5,456 nucleotides of DNA from Amoebophrya sp. A120. Lineage: Eukaryota > Protista > Dinoflagellata. Location of the stretch: the NCBI GenBank assembly GCA_905178155.1, contig CAJINV010000037.1, positions 1-5,456 of the forward strand. The letters run 5' to 3'. Position 1 is the first letter of the stretch, and each line of letters begins with the position of its first letter. This document shows positions 1 through 5,456 of the stretch, in pieces. The translations under genes and the position numbers were made by a program. Below the pieces are notes generated by a model. The model was given only the letters and a program-made list of their open reading frames with translations, was not told the origin of the DNA and did not search any database.

Positions 1-1265
1 TTGCAACTGATCCGGTAATTTACTTTTGGCCGAAAAGAACTGATCCGCAGTCCAATTTTTCGGCCAAAAGTAAATTCGGATCAGTTGCAAACAGGGTGGG
101 AATCTGCAAAATTCCGTTTTTGCAGGGAAAAAAACCCGAAATCCCAAAGCGGACTGAGCCGGAGCGAAAACCTAATTTACTATTGGAAGATGCCCACCCT
201 GTTTCGCAACTGATCCGGTAATTTACTTTTGGCCGAAAAGAGCTGATCCGCAGTCCAGTTTTTCCGCCAAAAGTAAATTCGGATCAGTTGCAAACAGGAT
301 GGAAGTCTGCAAAGTTTCGTTTTTGCAGGGAAAAAAAGCCGAAATCCCAAAGCGGACTGAGCCGGAGCGAAAACCTAATTTACTATTGGCAGATTCCCAC
401 CCTGTTTTGCAACTGATCCGGTAATTTACTATTGGCCAAAAAGAAATGATCCGCAGTCTCCTTTTTCGACCAAAAGTAAACTCGGATCAGTTGCAAACAG
501 AGTGGGAATCTGCAAAATTCCGTTTTTGTAGGGAAAAAAATGCGAAAACCTAAAGCGGACTGAGCTGGGAAGAAAACCTAATTTACTTTTGGCGGGTAAC
601 CAGCCTGTTTTGCAACTGGTCCGGTAATTTACTATTGGCCAAAAAGAACTGATCCGCAGTCCCCTTTTTCGACCAAAAGTAAACTCGGATCAGTTGCAAA
701 CAGGGTGAGAATCTGCAACAATCCGTTTTTGCAGGGAAAAAAATGCGAAAACCTAGAGCGGACTGAGCTGAAGAGAAAATCTAATTTACTTTTGGCGGAT
801 AATCAGCCTGTTTTGAAACTGATCCGGTAATTTACTTTTGGCCGAAAAGAACTGATCCGCAGTCCCCTTTTTCGACCAAAAGTAAACTCGGATCAGTTGC
901 AAACAGAGTGAGAATCTGCAAAATTCCGTTTTTGCAGGGAAAAAAATGCGAAAACCTAGAGCGGACTGAGCTGAAGAGAAAATCTAATTTACTTTCGGCA
1001 GATACCCACCCTGTTTTGCACTTGATCCGGTAATTTACTCTTGGCCAAAAAGATCTGATCCGCAGTCCCCTTTTTCGACCAAAAGTAAACTGGGATCAGT
1101 TGCAAACAGGGTGAGAATCTACAACATTCCGTTTTTGCAGGGAAAAAAATACGAAAACCTGAAGCGGACTGAGCTGGAGAGAAGACCTAATTTACTTTTG
1201 GCGGATACCCAGCCTGTTTTGCGACTGATCTGGTAATTTACTATTGGCCGAAAAGAACTGATCCG
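1..1265. repeat. Tandem satellite, 203-bp unit, about 6.2 copies, each with a roughly 125-bp imperfect palindrome. Continues beyond the left edge
   Basis: GCAACTGATCCGGTAATTTAC or a close variant starts at 3, 206, 409, 612, 815, 1018 and 1221. In unit 1, 1-14 pairs with 77-90 and 17-36 pairs with 57-76 perfectly. Confidence 0.97.
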
Positions 1266-1304
1266 GTATCTACTTTCTGGCACAGCACACTGATCCCTGA
1301 TCCA

Positions 1305-1739
1305 CTACAAACAAACGAAGAATGTTGATTTGATGTCTCCACCCCCCCCCGACAAAAAACTTCCAACATTCCATATCGGCGGGAAGCATTTCAGACAGCA
1401 ATCGTTCCTCCTCGGCGAGTGACACAGCTCGTCACAGTAGCACGGTCGCAATTGGTCGATCTGGCAGCCGTAGGGCCCATGGAAGTCGATGTAGTGCGTT
1501 TTTTGCGACGTTTCTCCCTGTCCAGGCCCGGCGGGCGTTGTACCAGCAGTTGCATTTGTGCTGGTCAGCACAACAGAAGTCGTGTCTACCGGCTGCGCGA
1601 GTTGGCAAACCGGATATTGCACTTTGTCCAAAAGTGTCATGTTCAGCTCCCCCGCCGGGTCCATAGCCATTACCTGTTGCCGGATCTGGTGCAAAGCATG
1701 TCTGCGGAAGGTATCTTCGTTGAACAGGAGTGTGAGGTT
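1305..1739 (-). CDS. Exon F (NLTLLFNEDT...CYCDELCHSPRRNDCCLKCFPP...). The true end is either the TAG at 1305-1307 or a further intron junction at 1376/1375
   Basis: ORF 1305-1754, in frame after removal of 1740-2002. Contains the CxCDELC-x6-DCC motif. Confidence 0.8.
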   Translation of the reverse strand, partial: NLTLLFNEDTFRRHALHQIRQQVMAMDPAGELNMTLLDKVQYPVCQLAQPVDTTSVVLTSTNATAGTTPAGPGQGETSQKTHYIDFHGPYGCQIDQLRPCYCDELCHSPRRNDCCLKCFPPIWNVGSFLSGGGGDIKSTFFVCL

Positions 1740-4700
1740 TGTGTTATGCAACACAAATTATGTACTCTGGGTCTGGAAACTTGTGATGCATGTCAGTGAA
1801 TATTAAAGCTTGCTGTAATGCAACGCCAAGCATGACAGATTCTGTCGCCGCTCTGTGTTGTGTAGTCCGCATGAGAAGCTGCGTTTTTGCATGACAGACC
1901 AGGAGAGCTCTTCGTTGCCACGCAATACAGAGCTCAGGGTCATGTCAGAATAGCATGACAAATCTCGCATTCTTCCAGACCCAGACATGTCTGCAGTGGA
2001 TATGTGTTCAATAATTGCAACAGAAACTCCGCGTCGGACTGGCGAGCTTGTGGTGGCGTTCTCAACTGTTACATTCTCAAGTGTTACATGATTTGTCATG
2101 CAAAACTACCATAAGCCGCCAGACGACCAAGCTAACTTCGGATGAAAAATTCTGGAAGGGCTAAACAGAATCAAAATCTCATCGAAATTTGTGATGCGAG
2201 AGTTGCAAGCTTGACGATTTTACTGTTGCTGTTCTTGTATCACAAATTCATGTAACAGTTGAGAATGTAACGTTTGAGAATGCCATACTTGTGGTGGCGG
2301 GGTTGTAGCGCTGGGACCAGCATTTGTATCTGCGGTCGCGTTCGTGTCGTTTGTGTCGGAAGCGGTGTTCGTTCCATTTGTATCGTTGTTCATCGTGCCC
2401 GACGTGTTTGCTCCCACGGCACCAGGCGAAGAACCACTTACCGCACTTGCCGTCGTGCTCGTGCCCGGTGCAGTATTCATACCGGCGTCTTGTGAAGAAG
2501 GATCGTATTTGATCCTATCCAACACGGATAAATCCAAGTACTGCAAAGAAGCATCCGCGTCGACCTCAGTACTGCGCAGCCAATCCAGCACGATTTCCGA
2601 AATCGTTCTATTCGTGTTGTTCTCTTGGCCTAGCAAGTAGTCCTTGTTTGTGATAATTGCAGCAGCAGCTGTGTCGTTGACGTCATCCTCGGCGCCGCCC
2701 ATACCAGCACTCATCATGCTGCCATTCGAAGCATTTGACGTTCCACTCGTACCGCTACCACTGGCCGTGCTTGTGGTCCCGCTTTCATATCCAGGAAAAA
2801 AAGTGTGTAAGTGTAACTTTCTTTGAGGAACAGCATCACAAATTTGCTCTACATGACAGAGAAAACCTGTCATGCGTGGCTTGTAAGGCAAAACACACCT
2901 TAAAAGAGAGCTTCGTGGCTGTCTGGCATGACAGGTGTAACTCTGTTGCATGTTCTGCAACACAAATTTACAACACTTACACAGTTTTTTTCTTGCATAT
3001 TTGATACACAGCAGTCAACGCGTTCCTCACAATCATCAAATCCCGCTCAAACAGTTCATGCGCCGCTTGGAAGTAACTAGTTCTCAAATTCTCCCTGACC
3101 GTTTCAATCTCCCGGGCGTCGCACTCGGGGTAGTATCAAATGCAAATATGTCTGGGTCTGGAAAGATGCAAGGTTTGTCATGCTCTGCTAGCATGATTCT
3201 CAGGTTTGTCATGCAGATCACCCAAATGCGCCACTTTGCTGTCATGCAGAAGCCCAGTTTGTCATGCAGAATAGACAACACCGTCGCATCTCCAAAACCT
3301 GTCATGCTTGGCAGCCAATTGAGGCGTGCTCCTCTTTGTCCAACCACCATCACAAGTTTGGAGACCCAGACATATTTGCAATGCATAGGTAGGAGTGTTG
3401 AACCAAATCGACGGTGACCGGCTGGATCATTCTTTCAAACGTCCGGGTTGCATCCCAGACGGAAACTTGCTGGGAGTAGTTGAAAAGCTGGTGCTGGGAG
3501 AGGATGCGACGAAAAACTCCTGACGTAGCTCCTGCTTCTGACGCCAGACTAGCTGTCTGTTGCAGCTGTGCTGTCCCTGCAGCAGGTACTAAAACTCCGT
3601 TTGAATCGAAAGTAGTCTGCTCCACAAGAGCTGCGGGCTCTGTCTTCTCCACCTGGTAGAGGATCTGCTTACTAGAAATCTGTGCTGCGTACTTCGAATT
3701 CCTCGCCAGCCGTCCCGAAAACAGCTTCCTTCGCGACGCTCCGCTTGGTATGTACTCCCGGATAATATTTTCATCCACCCTACTCGTGACGGAGAAATCG
3801 GTTAGTCTCCCACTGTTATCGTCCAACGGGATGTCGACGAAGTCCGCGGTTGTCAAGTTCAACCCCGTGTAGGCGAGAGACTTGTAATCCAGGTTCTTGA
3901 AAGTCGTTTGTAGTAAAGTGTCGACCACGTTTTCAATAGCAGAGAAAACCAGTTGGTCGGCTGGGATGTGCGTTTCTTGAGCGTGGTCTGCGTCTGTGGT
4001 CGTGTTTGTCATGTTACTTCCGTTACCAACATTCTCTACCCCCGTCGCCCGAATTTTCCCGCTGCTTTCCCAACAGACTTCAAAATTCCTCAGCAGCTCC
4101 AGTTCCCGGGGTTTCAAAGTCTGTATCGTGTCTGTCGATAACACATGGTCCCTGATATCCCCCTTCCGCAAGTCGTAGAGCTCCAACAATTCTGGATGCG
4201 CGAAGAAGGTTTCGAACACGTCTGCGCACCTGGGGAAGTCCCTCGCGACGTCTTCCTTCCAGCACAGATTACACTTCGGCGCTGACTGGATTCTGTACTG
4301 CTCGTTGCCCATGTACTCGTGGCAAACGTGGTGTTCCGCGGAATACTTGCTCACCATCGCGCAACTTGTCATGTTAAACTGCCGCTCCAGATCCGCGATG
4401 CAGTAGTTGCTGTCGTTCGTCGCTGAAGTACAGAAATTCCTCGCCTTCACCTTGTTGACGAAGAACGATCCCCGATTCGCCAGTTTCTTCAACTCATATC
4501 AAGTGCAAAAGTGTCTGGGTCTGGGAGAGTGTAAACTTGTCACGCAGATTTTTCATGACGCGTGAGGTCTGGAATGCGGGACTTAGCATGACAGACTCTG
4601 CGAGGTCCCTGCCATGCCTATCCTGCATGAGAAAGTCCCTCCCAACTTGGTCGAAAGTAGACAGCTTTTGGCACTCATGCAACACAGATTTTTGTATGCT

Positions 4701-5136
4701 TCAGATTTACCATGACAAGTTACTGCCTTCCAGACCCAGACACATTTGCAATTCATAACTCATCATAAGTCCCGAAAGGGTCCAGCGGCTGGTAGTGCGG
4801 CAAGGTCCAGCACGCATTCTCGGGGCCAGTGATGTTTGAGGCGTTAGTGGAATTTGTCATGTTTTGTTCGGAGGAGTTTGTCATGCTAAGATTAACACTG
4901 CTTGCTGACGCGGCAACAACACTGCTATCGCCGTCACCTCCTCCTGCAATCAACAGCGCATAATTCTTCGCTTCCTCGTTCGCGACTCTGTGCAAGTCCG
5001 ACTCACAGTGGTCGAAGTGGTTGAAGAAGACATCTGGCGTGGTCAAATGACGGTGCTGCTCCGTCCATTCGCAATTCTCCAGGGTAAAAGTCGGCCAATA
5101 CTTGTGGCAGCAGTCGAACTGACGCTCTGCGGAGCA
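1305..5136 (-). CDS. Multi-exon gene fragment (5' end outside the window): Cys-rich, Ser/Thr-rich, N-sequon-rich putative secreted/surface glycoprotein with somatomedin-B-like motifs. Exons 5136-4758, 4491-3388, 3128-3000, 2782-2288, 2046-2003, 1739-1305 (or 1739-1376)
   Basis: Removing each TIR element plus one 5-bp direct repeat joins the exons in frame: GTYDE|LKKLA, VQHSY|PECDA, TAVYQ|SGTTS, TPPPQ|ARQSD, QLLNT|NLTLL. Exon lengths sum to 2586 nt = 862 codons including the TAG. About 25 N-x-S/T sequons. The product call is inferred from composition only. Confidence 0.85.
1745..2002. mobile_element. Introner/MITE-like non-canonical intron E5 (258 bp, TIR family A, inverted relative to E2)
   Basis: Ends TATGCAAC...TCTGGGTCTGGAA and (reverse complement) TATCCACT...TCTGGGTCTGGAA. 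Direct repeat TGTGT at 1740-1744 and 2003-2007. Its reverse complement is colinear with E2. Removing 263 nt restores the frame. Confidence 0.88.
2003..2046 (-). CDS. Exon E, 44-nt mini-exon (ARQSDAEFLLQLLNT)
   Basis: Lies between two adjacent elements and is open in the frame linking exons D and F. Confidence 0.75.
2052..2287. mobile_element. Introner/MITE-like non-canonical intron E4 (236 bp, TIR family C)
   Basis: About 50-bp TIRs, GGTGGCGTTCTCAACTGTTACATTCTCAAGTGTTACATGA / TATGGCATTCTCAAACGTTACATTCTCAACTGTTACATGA, each containing a 15-bp tandem doublet. Direct repeat CTTGT at 2047-2051 and 2288-2292. Removing 241 nt restores the frame. Confidence 0.88.
2288..2782 (-). CDS. Exon D (SGTTSTASG...SATTPPPQ), Ser/Thr/Asn-rich low-complexity region
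   Basis: Central part of ORF 2220-2963. The ends of that ORF are read-through into the flanking elements. Confidence 0.85.
2788..2999. mobile_element. Introner/MITE-like non-canonical intron E3 (212 bp, TIR family B)
   Basis: TIRs TATCCAGGAAAAAAAGTGTGTAAGTGT / TATGCAAGAAAAAAACTGTGTAAGTGT (24/27). Imperfect direct repeat TTTCA (2783-2787) / TTTGA (3000-3004). Removing 217 nt restores the frame. Confidence 0.85.
3000..3128 (-). CDS. Exon C (PECDAREIETVRENLRTSYFQAAHELFERDLMIVRNALTAVYQ), absent from the ORF track
   Basis: 129 nt between two elements. It is open in exactly the frame needed to link exons B and D. Confidence 0.8.
3134..3387. mobile_element. Introner/MITE-like non-canonical intron E2 (254 bp, TIR family A)
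   Basis: TIRs TATCAAATGCAAATATGTCTGGGTCT / TATGCATTGCAAATATGTCTGGGTCT (23/26). Direct repeat GGTAG at 3129-3133 and 3388-3392. Removing 259 nt restores the frame. Confidence 0.9.
3388..4491 (-). CDS. Exon B (LKKLANRG...DLVQHSY)
   Basis: 1.1-kb open frame (ORF 3350-4492) whose ends coincide with two TIR elements. Confidence 0.9.
4497..4757. mobile_element. Introner/MITE-like non-canonical intron E1 (261 bp, TIR family A)
   Basis: Left end TATCAAGTGCAAAAGTGTCTGGGTCTGG vs reverse complement of right end TATGAATTGCAAATGTGTCTGGGTCTGG (25/28, weaker pairing to about 47 bp). Direct repeat ACTCA at 4492-4496 and 4758-4762. Removing 266 nt restores the frame. Confidence 0.9.
4758..5136 (-). CDS. Exon A (CSAERQFDCCHKYWP...DPFGTYDE)
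   Basis: 3' part of ORF 4753-5406. Bounded by the TIR starting at 5137 and the element ending at 4757. Confidence 0.85.
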
Positions 5137-5456
5137 TATGGGGTTCTCAAACGTTACATTCTCAACTGTTACATGATTAATATTTATATTGCTTGACTTC
5201 CGGGTTCTGTGATCACATACCCCAGACGACAGGTGACGGCGACAGGTGACGCCGAGAGGTGACGGCGACAGGCGAAAGGAGAGGCCAAACGACAGGCGAA
5301 AGGAGAGGCGAAACGACAGGCGAAACGACAGGCGAAAGGAGAGGCGAAACGACAGGCGAAAGGAGAGGCGAAACGACAGGCGGCGACGACAGGCCAAAAG
5401 CGGCAATTTCTAATGCGGTTCAGCACCAGCAGCAGCAACAACAAAAAAGCAAAAAG
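5137..5456. mobile_element. Introner E0 (TIR family C), truncated by the window end, at least 320 bp
   Basis: 5137-5176 TATGGGGTTCTCAAACGTTACATTCTCAACTGTTACATGA matches the reverse complement of the E4 right end at 38/40. The partner TIR is not in the window. Predicted direct repeat is GAGCA (5132-5136). Confidence 0.75.
5228..5400. repeat. Purine-rich minisatellite, about 14 units of 12-13 bp (GASAGGCGAAAS / GASAGGTGACGSC)
   Basis: Three 13-mers (5228-5266), nine 12-mers (5267-5374) and two degenerate 13-mers. It produces the spurious RLSF/RFASPFAC repeat ORFs. Confidence 0.95.

Follow-up and report, generated by a model that had tools for sequence, protein, structure and literature searches.

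How can a protein be made from a gene whose coding sequence is broken five times by transposon-like inserts that offer no GT-AG ends? The question is raised by a 5,456-nt stretch of the Amoebophrya sp. A120 genome (contig CAJINV010000037.1, positions 1 to 5,456; hereafter the window), in which a gene on the minus strand is interrupted by five inserts of 212-261 bp (E1 to E5). Inverted repeats are found at both ends of all five and an exact flanking 5-mer in four, and the inserts, terminal inverted repeats (TIRs) and 5-bp repeats described in an earlier note on this DNA lie just where it had placed them. The inserts are likely non-GT-AG introns of the miniature inverted-repeat transposable element (MITE) type, cut from the pre-mRNA together with one copy of the flanking duplication. 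We infer the same removal of element plus one repeat copy for the RNA of the host gene, which is probably alive. Its predicted parts are, in coding order:

4758..5136, minus strand: first exon within the window (open frame, codon model), 5' limit at 5131 or 5136, start codon unsettled
4492..4757, minus strand: predicted intron E5, 261-bp element 4497-4757 plus repeat copy 4492-4496 (ACTCA/ACTCA), belonging to the largest family
3388..4491, minus strand: longest exon, 1104 bp (open frame; homologue searches empty)
3129..3387, minus strand: predicted intron E4, 254-bp element 3134-3387 plus repeat copy 3129-3133 (GGTAG/GGTAG)
3000..3128, minus strand: 129-bp exon (open frame, codon model)
2783..2999, minus strand: predicted intron E3, 212-bp element 2788-2999 plus repeat copy 2783-2787 (TTTCA/TTTGA), the sole imperfect repeat in the window
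2288..2782, minus strand: exon rich in Thr, Ser, Gly and Asn (open frame, codon model)
2047..2287, minus strand: predicted intron E2, 236-bp element 2052-2287 plus repeat copy 2047-2051 (CTTGT/CTTGT), 3' end in the coding sense without ATA
2003..2046, minus strand: 44-bp exon (open frame, codon model)
1740..2002, minus strand: predicted intron E1, 258-bp element 1745-2002 plus repeat copy 1740-1744 (TGTGT/TGTGT)
1305..1739, minus strand: last exon, stop codon at 1305-1307 (open frame, codon model)

Removal of each element with one repeat copy (263, 241, 217, 259 and 266 nt for E1 to E5, leaving remainders of 2, 1, 1, 1 and 2 on division by three) leaves one minus-strand frame that stays open from 5136 down to its stop codon at 1305-1307 (861 codons); the five junction peptides predicted in the earlier note (YDELKK, HSYPEC, VY(Q/E)SG, PPQARQ and LNTNLT) all occur in it. 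A codon model trained only on related loci chose the predicted frame for all six window exons, clearly in five and by a small margin for the 44-bp exon. Ordinary gene callers split such genes into fragments (P0001 is an example).

Relatives of the inserts were sought with an exact pattern for the commonest arm, which matched at least 162 stretches in metagenome contigs (a single assembly among the matches listed) and none in viral contigs. The comparison sample comprised 155 loci (614 kb) from a related assembly. Tests of frame and orientation used the 73 long loci (L001-L073), leaving out 82 short ones; of their 267 elements, 39 with less than 300 nt of flank were dropped from the frame test and 43 could not be oriented, and splice-pair counts refer to 183 sites after 41 of the 224 oriented ones, with imperfect repeats, were set aside. 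All five window elements have full-length relatives in this sample (12-147 matches of at least 180 nt each, best identity 81-94%), so the inserts are not chance features. The gene for KIN17 in locus L039 had two matches, its own fragment and a protein of Amoebophrya sp. A120 with 92% identity, which makes the source of the related loci a relative of A120.

That the elements are transposons follows from their anatomy. When 308 elements were delimited solely by the arms, without use of the flanking repeat, an exact repeat of length 5 occurred in 225, whereas lengths 3, 4 and 6-10 occurred in 0-3 and the shuffled rate was 0.4%. The insertion target shows little base preference. With short non-coding bodies, TIRs, a target duplication of fixed length and many copies, the elements agree with MITEs, and the earlier identification as miniature TIR transposons is borne out. 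Their arms follow the logo TAT(C/G)...TG(C/T)AAA; at positions 12 and 13, 98% have an A that the definition did not demand. Where the motif was not required, deviations were found at 11 of 912 positions for TAT and likewise 11 of 912 for AAA, one arm per locus having been chosen by the search pattern. Mismatch between the two arms was 0.28-0.62 at positions 4-7 as against 0.01-0.05 at positions 1-3 and 11-13. In the window, TAT-N7-AAA is exact in six of ten arms, and E1 and E2 have one decayed end apiece. The TAT...ATA ends reported earlier hold in general but not for E2, which has TAT at a single end and GGT (plus strand) at the other, two changes from its family arm; the E2 family also lacks AAA at arm positions 11-13. 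Borders of this family carry an exact repeat in 7 of 9 cases, a figure that is partly circular since the border score includes the repeat. Both orientations are used: E1 and E4 are members of one family in opposite orientations within the same gene, and the six largest families count 39:34, 23:11, 7:7, 9:5, 8:5 and 8:3. Nearest neighbours among the elements have a median identity of 85% in a small sample. No extra selection on repeat identity or on TAT and AAA could be demonstrated, mismatch being about 5% per base in the repeat versus about 1% at invariant arm positions, with selection bias in the comparison. The 73 long loci contained no autonomous copy and one longer element only (834 bp), and no empty site was recovered.

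Several side observations concern the elements. The longer element (L027, 632-1465) has an exact 5-bp duplication and is probably one element nested in another. At arm positions 4-7 a few variants combine freely between the two ends in all families (both ends agree in 34 of 224 elements), so that an internal loop recurs just inside UAU/AUA. Insertion phase is biased (107/66/51 among the 224 oriented elements of L001-L073, chi-square P 1e-5), yet the target has no strong consensus. At L037 5961-6000 and L039 4437-4484, mini-exons of about 35-45 nt lie between two elements; what had looked like exon duplications beside paired elements in these two loci turned out to be such mini-exons. A survey of 35 element-like intervals missed by the element caller gave no clean natural mutants.

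The case for removal draws on the related loci. Genes interrupted by elements there encode DNA ligase I, a ubiquitin-activating E1 enzyme, an SNF2 ATPase, KIN17, an enoyl-CoA hydratase/dehydrogenase, TerC and a Ras-family GTPase (Pfam was run on 139 of the 244 exon pieces, and 8 of 33 plasmid matches were used), and several of the elements inside conserved genes have lengths that are not multiples of three. As these conserved frames are otherwise intact, the proteins can exist only if the elements are removed in some way. The GTPase gene has an E2-family copy directly behind the P-loop; two related Pfam models place it between their profile positions 15 and 16, albeit with weak E-values. KIN17 and the hydratase/dehydrogenase align to their homologues without junction gaps once each element and five further nucleotides are taken out, and the A120 KIN17 protein, annotated from transcripts, runs gap-free through each of the three element junctions of L039; the same gene also has a GT-starting intron. 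Across 228 sites, this removal gave the longest two-sided open frame at 138, the other two frames at 32 each, with 26 ties, and it won 62 of the 65 sites where the margin was 200 nt. By every sequence feature tested, the inserts match the introners (intron-generating elements) of the A120 type, and such introners are very probably removed at the RNA level. Their match with Amoebophrya introners, asserted in the earlier note, is supported; the end motif and an example of a 5-bp repeat have been in print since 2021 (PMC7789003).

Where exactly the cuts fall is harder to read, because aligners cannot place a cut within perfect repeats; imperfect repeats, in turn, mark the true site. They occur at 41 of the 224 oriented sites and at E3. 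Both of those readable against homologues kept the upstream copy: in KIN17 (L039) a Ser is retained at repeat position 2, and in L037 a Gly at position 1, matching 8 of 8 bacterial homologues. The two cases fit an intron that would run from UAU to 5 nt past AUA, while placing only the 3' cut, beyond position 2 of the downstream copy. The uniform UAU start of the earlier note thus agrees with both informative repeats but is only partly pinned down by them, and a cut exactly at UAU is somewhat favoured. At E3, the junction residue is Gln if the upstream copy is kept and Glu if the downstream copy is kept; a UAU-start boundary predicts Gln. The published account of A120 introns left the position of their borders open (PMC7789003).

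The 5' and 3' arm logos are alike across the 224 oriented elements, and the base composition of the last 60 nt mirrors that of the first 60. Of the 183 sites, 85 offer a 3' AG; as the expectation based on phase-matched coding sites is 88.3, there is no enrichment. All five window elements fold more stably than their shuffles (z -3.8 to -6.5). Since both ends are alike and orientation is irrelevant, the signal would be the paired UAU...AUA end rather than a donor, branch or acceptor sequence on one strand.

Several points weigh against our reading. Any insertion that duplicates its target regains the frame once the element and one copy are removed, so the removal rule, which the earlier note had taken as a sign of splicing, shows transposition into an open frame and not splicing. 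No RNA run was listed as containing this stretch. No exon-exon joint of the host gene was seen in four runs of the same species label, where depth fell on the elements only and none on the exons, and where the presence of the organism or strain is unproven. In run X6, over window positions 4673-4742, 187 RNA reads from a different E5-like copy continue into unrelated flanks; this copy is a retained or untranslated one. The longest exon had no homologue in word-index searches (203-648 and 649-2000 residues) or among 1.84 billion representatives, and its best Atlas matches reached 0.78 only; Pfam gave nothing above cut-off for five exon pieces of the host gene. What speaks for the host protein is the open frame and the codon fit. 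The window and the 155 loci appear to come from the same or a close organism, as judged from shared element families and codon usage; the window exons had no match in these loci. As to the cut, the two informative imperfect repeats bear on positions 1 and 2 and not on 3-5, and a codon-fit test, uninformative on the whole, preferred the downstream copy at repeat position 1 in 9 of 10 cases. Use of that test to identify the kept copy was dropped, as it confounds ancestral with derived bases and was wrong in the one case checked by homologues. Arm position 4 has a mild strand bias (59 vs 36, P 0.023). Among the 183 sites, a 5' GT occurs a little more often than expected (91 vs 79, P 0.017), and so does GT-AG among equivalent cuts (13 vs 7.2, P 0.017), which suggests that some sites may use ordinary signals. 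Finally, a strict ruler based on the hairpin end leaves two of the five window elements unexplained, as the outer arms of E1 are degenerate and predicted not to pair, and E2 has no 3' ATA.

The two decayed elements deserve a closer look as natural end mutants, which may tell how much of a hairpin end is needed. The repeat of E2 has grown to 12 nt, shared with the upstream exon end, because the two bases at its decayed end differ from the family arm, and 13 equivalent cuts result. Its decayed end (2047-2058) matches the exon past the other end (2288-2299) over these 12 nt. The two changes are adjacent and affect the most conserved positions; microhomology-driven conversion is a possible origin.

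With these points in mind, we propose the following course of events. An insertion would be made by a trans-acting cut-and-paste transposase with a 5-base staggered cut, little site preference and either orientation; the anatomy of this step is visible in the elements, the enzyme is presumed. In the transcript the two arms would then base-pair, forming a long hairpin by which the exon ends are brought close to each other, and, like the earlier note, we infer that this structure guides removal. The 5' cut would likely fall directly in front of UAU and the 3' cut 5 bases past AUA, in partial agreement with the imperfect repeats, so that the upstream copy would stay in the mRNA and the original coding sequence would be restored to the base. 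As the catalyst, a modified spliceosome in which the hairpin replaces the U1-based choice of the 5' site is, on balance, the better guess.

Alternatively, the RNA-level removal could be carried out by a spliceosome-independent endonuclease and ligase, or by a factor derived from a transposase, that reads the hairpin end, as has been proposed for the nonconventional introns of euglenids. This is a possibility to be taken seriously, though an unlikely one. The independence from orientation and the lack of AG, pyrimidine or branch-like strand asymmetry would suit such an enzyme, and the A120 genome study, which did not detect a U1 small nuclear RNA, expected a distinct mechanism (PMC7789003). The code of Euglena introns likewise includes a motif that is paired and, on the 3' side, a spacer of 5-6 nt (PMC12501133). 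Against it, A120 is reported to have 83 of 89 spliceosomal proteins along with U2, U4, U5 and U6, and 35% of its introns are GT-AG (PMC7789003); the transposon-born non-canonical introns of Fritillaria are reportedly removed by a changed spliceosome (PMC11282704, PMC13326754), and the mild GT enrichment would not be expected. In its strictest form this alternative would be one symmetric rule, with a cut before UAU and another 5 nt after AUA of the paired end and with no role for GT, AG, branch point or U1, which we regard as doubtful. If true, it would amount to an RNA-level eraser of 5-bp-duplicating insertions, and insertions of the transposon would be cost-free at any place in coding DNA and in both orientations.

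A different view of the locus is that the host gene is a pseudogene hit by five elements and not spliced at all. The automatic restoration of the frame, the failed homologue searches for the longest exon and the position of the locus between a satellite array and short tandem repeats would all agree with it. However, the chance that 861 codons remain without a stop is 0.20, 0.04 or 0.002 at 2%, 4% or 8% neutral divergence; neither stop nor frameshift is seen although the ends of E1 and E2 are visibly decayed. As the codon model also fits and the same families occupy conserved genes elsewhere, we consider a pseudogene improbable.

The ordinary spliceosome might instead use cryptic GT-AG or GC-AG pairs near the elements, at the price of a few codons gained or lost. 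Within about 60 nt of each window element there are 10-35 such frame-keeping pairs, each shifting the product by at least 3 nt, so that the window taken by itself is compatible with their use, and the GT-AG excess among equivalent cuts points the same way. The earlier description of the inserts as non-GT-AG is accordingly right for the equivalent cuts, where none of the five window elements has a GT-AG or GC-AG option, but has to be qualified by these nearby pairs and by E1, which alone offers AT-AC. Canonical intron identity of the U2 or U12 kind was considered and rejected, GT/GC-AG or AT-AC ends being absent apart from this option of E1; the minor spliceosome is reported absent from strains A25 and A120 (PMC7789003). 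Cryptic pairs are very improbable as a general answer in view of the gap-free junctions of KIN17 and the hydratase/dehydrogenase, of the 153 of 183 sites without any GT-AG, GC-AG, GA-AG or AT-AC option among the equivalent cuts, and of RNA sequencing that found 65% of A120 introns to be non-canonical (PMC7789003).

A hairpin combined with a direct repeat is the anatomy that favours template switching by reverse transcriptase, and some published junctions could be artefacts of this kind, with the real processing being different; the elements with lengths not divisible by three in conserved genes with intact frames make this a remote prospect. We know of no germline-soma nuclear dimorphism in the group of Amoebophrya. 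Excision from the DNA of a working genome copy, resembling that of the internal eliminated sequences of ciliates and allowed for in the earlier note, would be compatible with inverted ends and the loss of one repeat copy but is the least credible of these explanations, the A120 introns having been identified from RNA reads aligned to a genome in which the elements are present (PMC7789003). Removal of the element and one repeat copy at the RNA level is thus the best reading, and DNA elimination is without support.

The gene probably extends beyond the part recovered here, since its 5' end is followed by a lone arm of the E2 family:

5137..5180, no strand assigned: unpaired terminal arm of the E2 family, 44 nt, 98% to L107, with no partner in the window and AT-rich sequence beyond

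This arm may represent the 3' end of a sixth intron that extends out of the window, or else a truncated copy, and the host gene would probably be cut off at its 5' end. The open frame itself continues across the arm and the following repeats as far as a stop near 5409. The predicted part of the protein (1305-5136, minus strand) is rich in Thr, Ala and Ser, with 26 N-x-S/T motifs and 24 Cys, and resembles a surface or secreted protein. Purine-rich tandem repeats lie at 5227-5398 (13-bp unit, 3.5 copies, and 12-bp unit, 11 copies). At the other side, positions 1-1265 hold a 203-bp tandem satellite (6.2 copies, 90% match), the unit of which is predicted to form two long hairpins (-60.6 kcal/mol as DNA); it had no match in the 155 related loci or in Rfam.

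The elements of A120 have already been published, and their excision mechanism is the remaining question, sharpened here by one duplication length, insertion in either orientation and the lack of AG enrichment. Together with the imperfect repeats, the uniform 5-bp rule and orientation independence make the cut site testable with existing data. No paper settling the mechanism in Amoebophrya was found in the literature searched, which covered few subscription journals. Farhat et al. (2021) reported 65% non-canonical introns with a mean of 240 nt and junctions supported by RNA sequencing, 29,850 introner copies that fall into 1,954 families, inverted repeats of TAT, seven variable bases and at least three A, and direct repeats 3-5 nt long, one of 5 bp being given in the legend of Fig. 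S19 (PMC7789003). The window elements share the TAT+7 nt+AAA ends, direct repeats, length of about 240 nt, many families, hairpin and lack of fixed terminal dinucleotides. They differ in that we read a uniform 5-bp target duplication where that paper gives 3-5 nt, in that the E2 family lacks AAA at positions 11-13, and in that the related loci come from a genome whose KIN17 is 92% identical; the logos and repeat distributions in the figures of that paper may already show part of our results. Gozashti et al. (2025) listed 58 A120 introner families; the 22 considered here are mostly TIR elements of unknown superfamily (PMC12130899). As in our sample, these TIR elements are 150-320 bp long, and their annotated ends are mostly non-canonical. 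The automated calls of that paper, as the column reads, contain repeats 2-5 long or none at all (length 5 in 3 of 22 rows) together with both 'carry' and 'co-opt' modes, whereas our data favour one rule and no co-opted AG. The supplements of that paper, where no element sequences appeared, did not yield the element motifs. An Amoebophrya strain from Karlodinium is reported to have mostly GT-AG introns (PMC12005148).

Among transposons and introns of other lineages, likeness is always partial. The IS3EU and GingerRoot DNA transposons have TA..TA termini in common with the elements described here, but usually make 6-bp duplications (PMC10045372) rather than 5-bp ones, and an exact 6-bp repeat was found in 0 of 308 elements. 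As this defining feature disagrees and no transposase was found, an affinity would be a lead only. Nonconventional introns of Euglena resemble our elements in their paired ends, lack of GT-AG, junction repeats and unpaired 3' spacer of 5-6 nt (PMC12501133, PMC11282704). They belong to an unrelated lineage and follow the motif N3CDG...CH'G N5-6 with a purine first in the next exon (PMC12501133); a Euglena-type signature was considered here and rejected, the arm logos being TAT(C/G)...TGCAAA and a purine coming first after the repeat in about half of 224 elements, no more than background. Introns of Fritillaria borealis likewise stem from MITEs with TIRs and target-site duplications and are removed despite non-GT-AG ends, but they have a fixed AG start, AC/AT-type ends and a target preference (PMC11282704, PMC13326754), whereas the ends seen here vary with the target. 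The introners of Micromonas, Aureococcus and Symbiodinium are also non-autonomous elements with TIRs and target-site duplications that have turned into introns; however, they carry or co-opt GY and AG (PMC9860276), while the elements of this study show no enrichment of AG.

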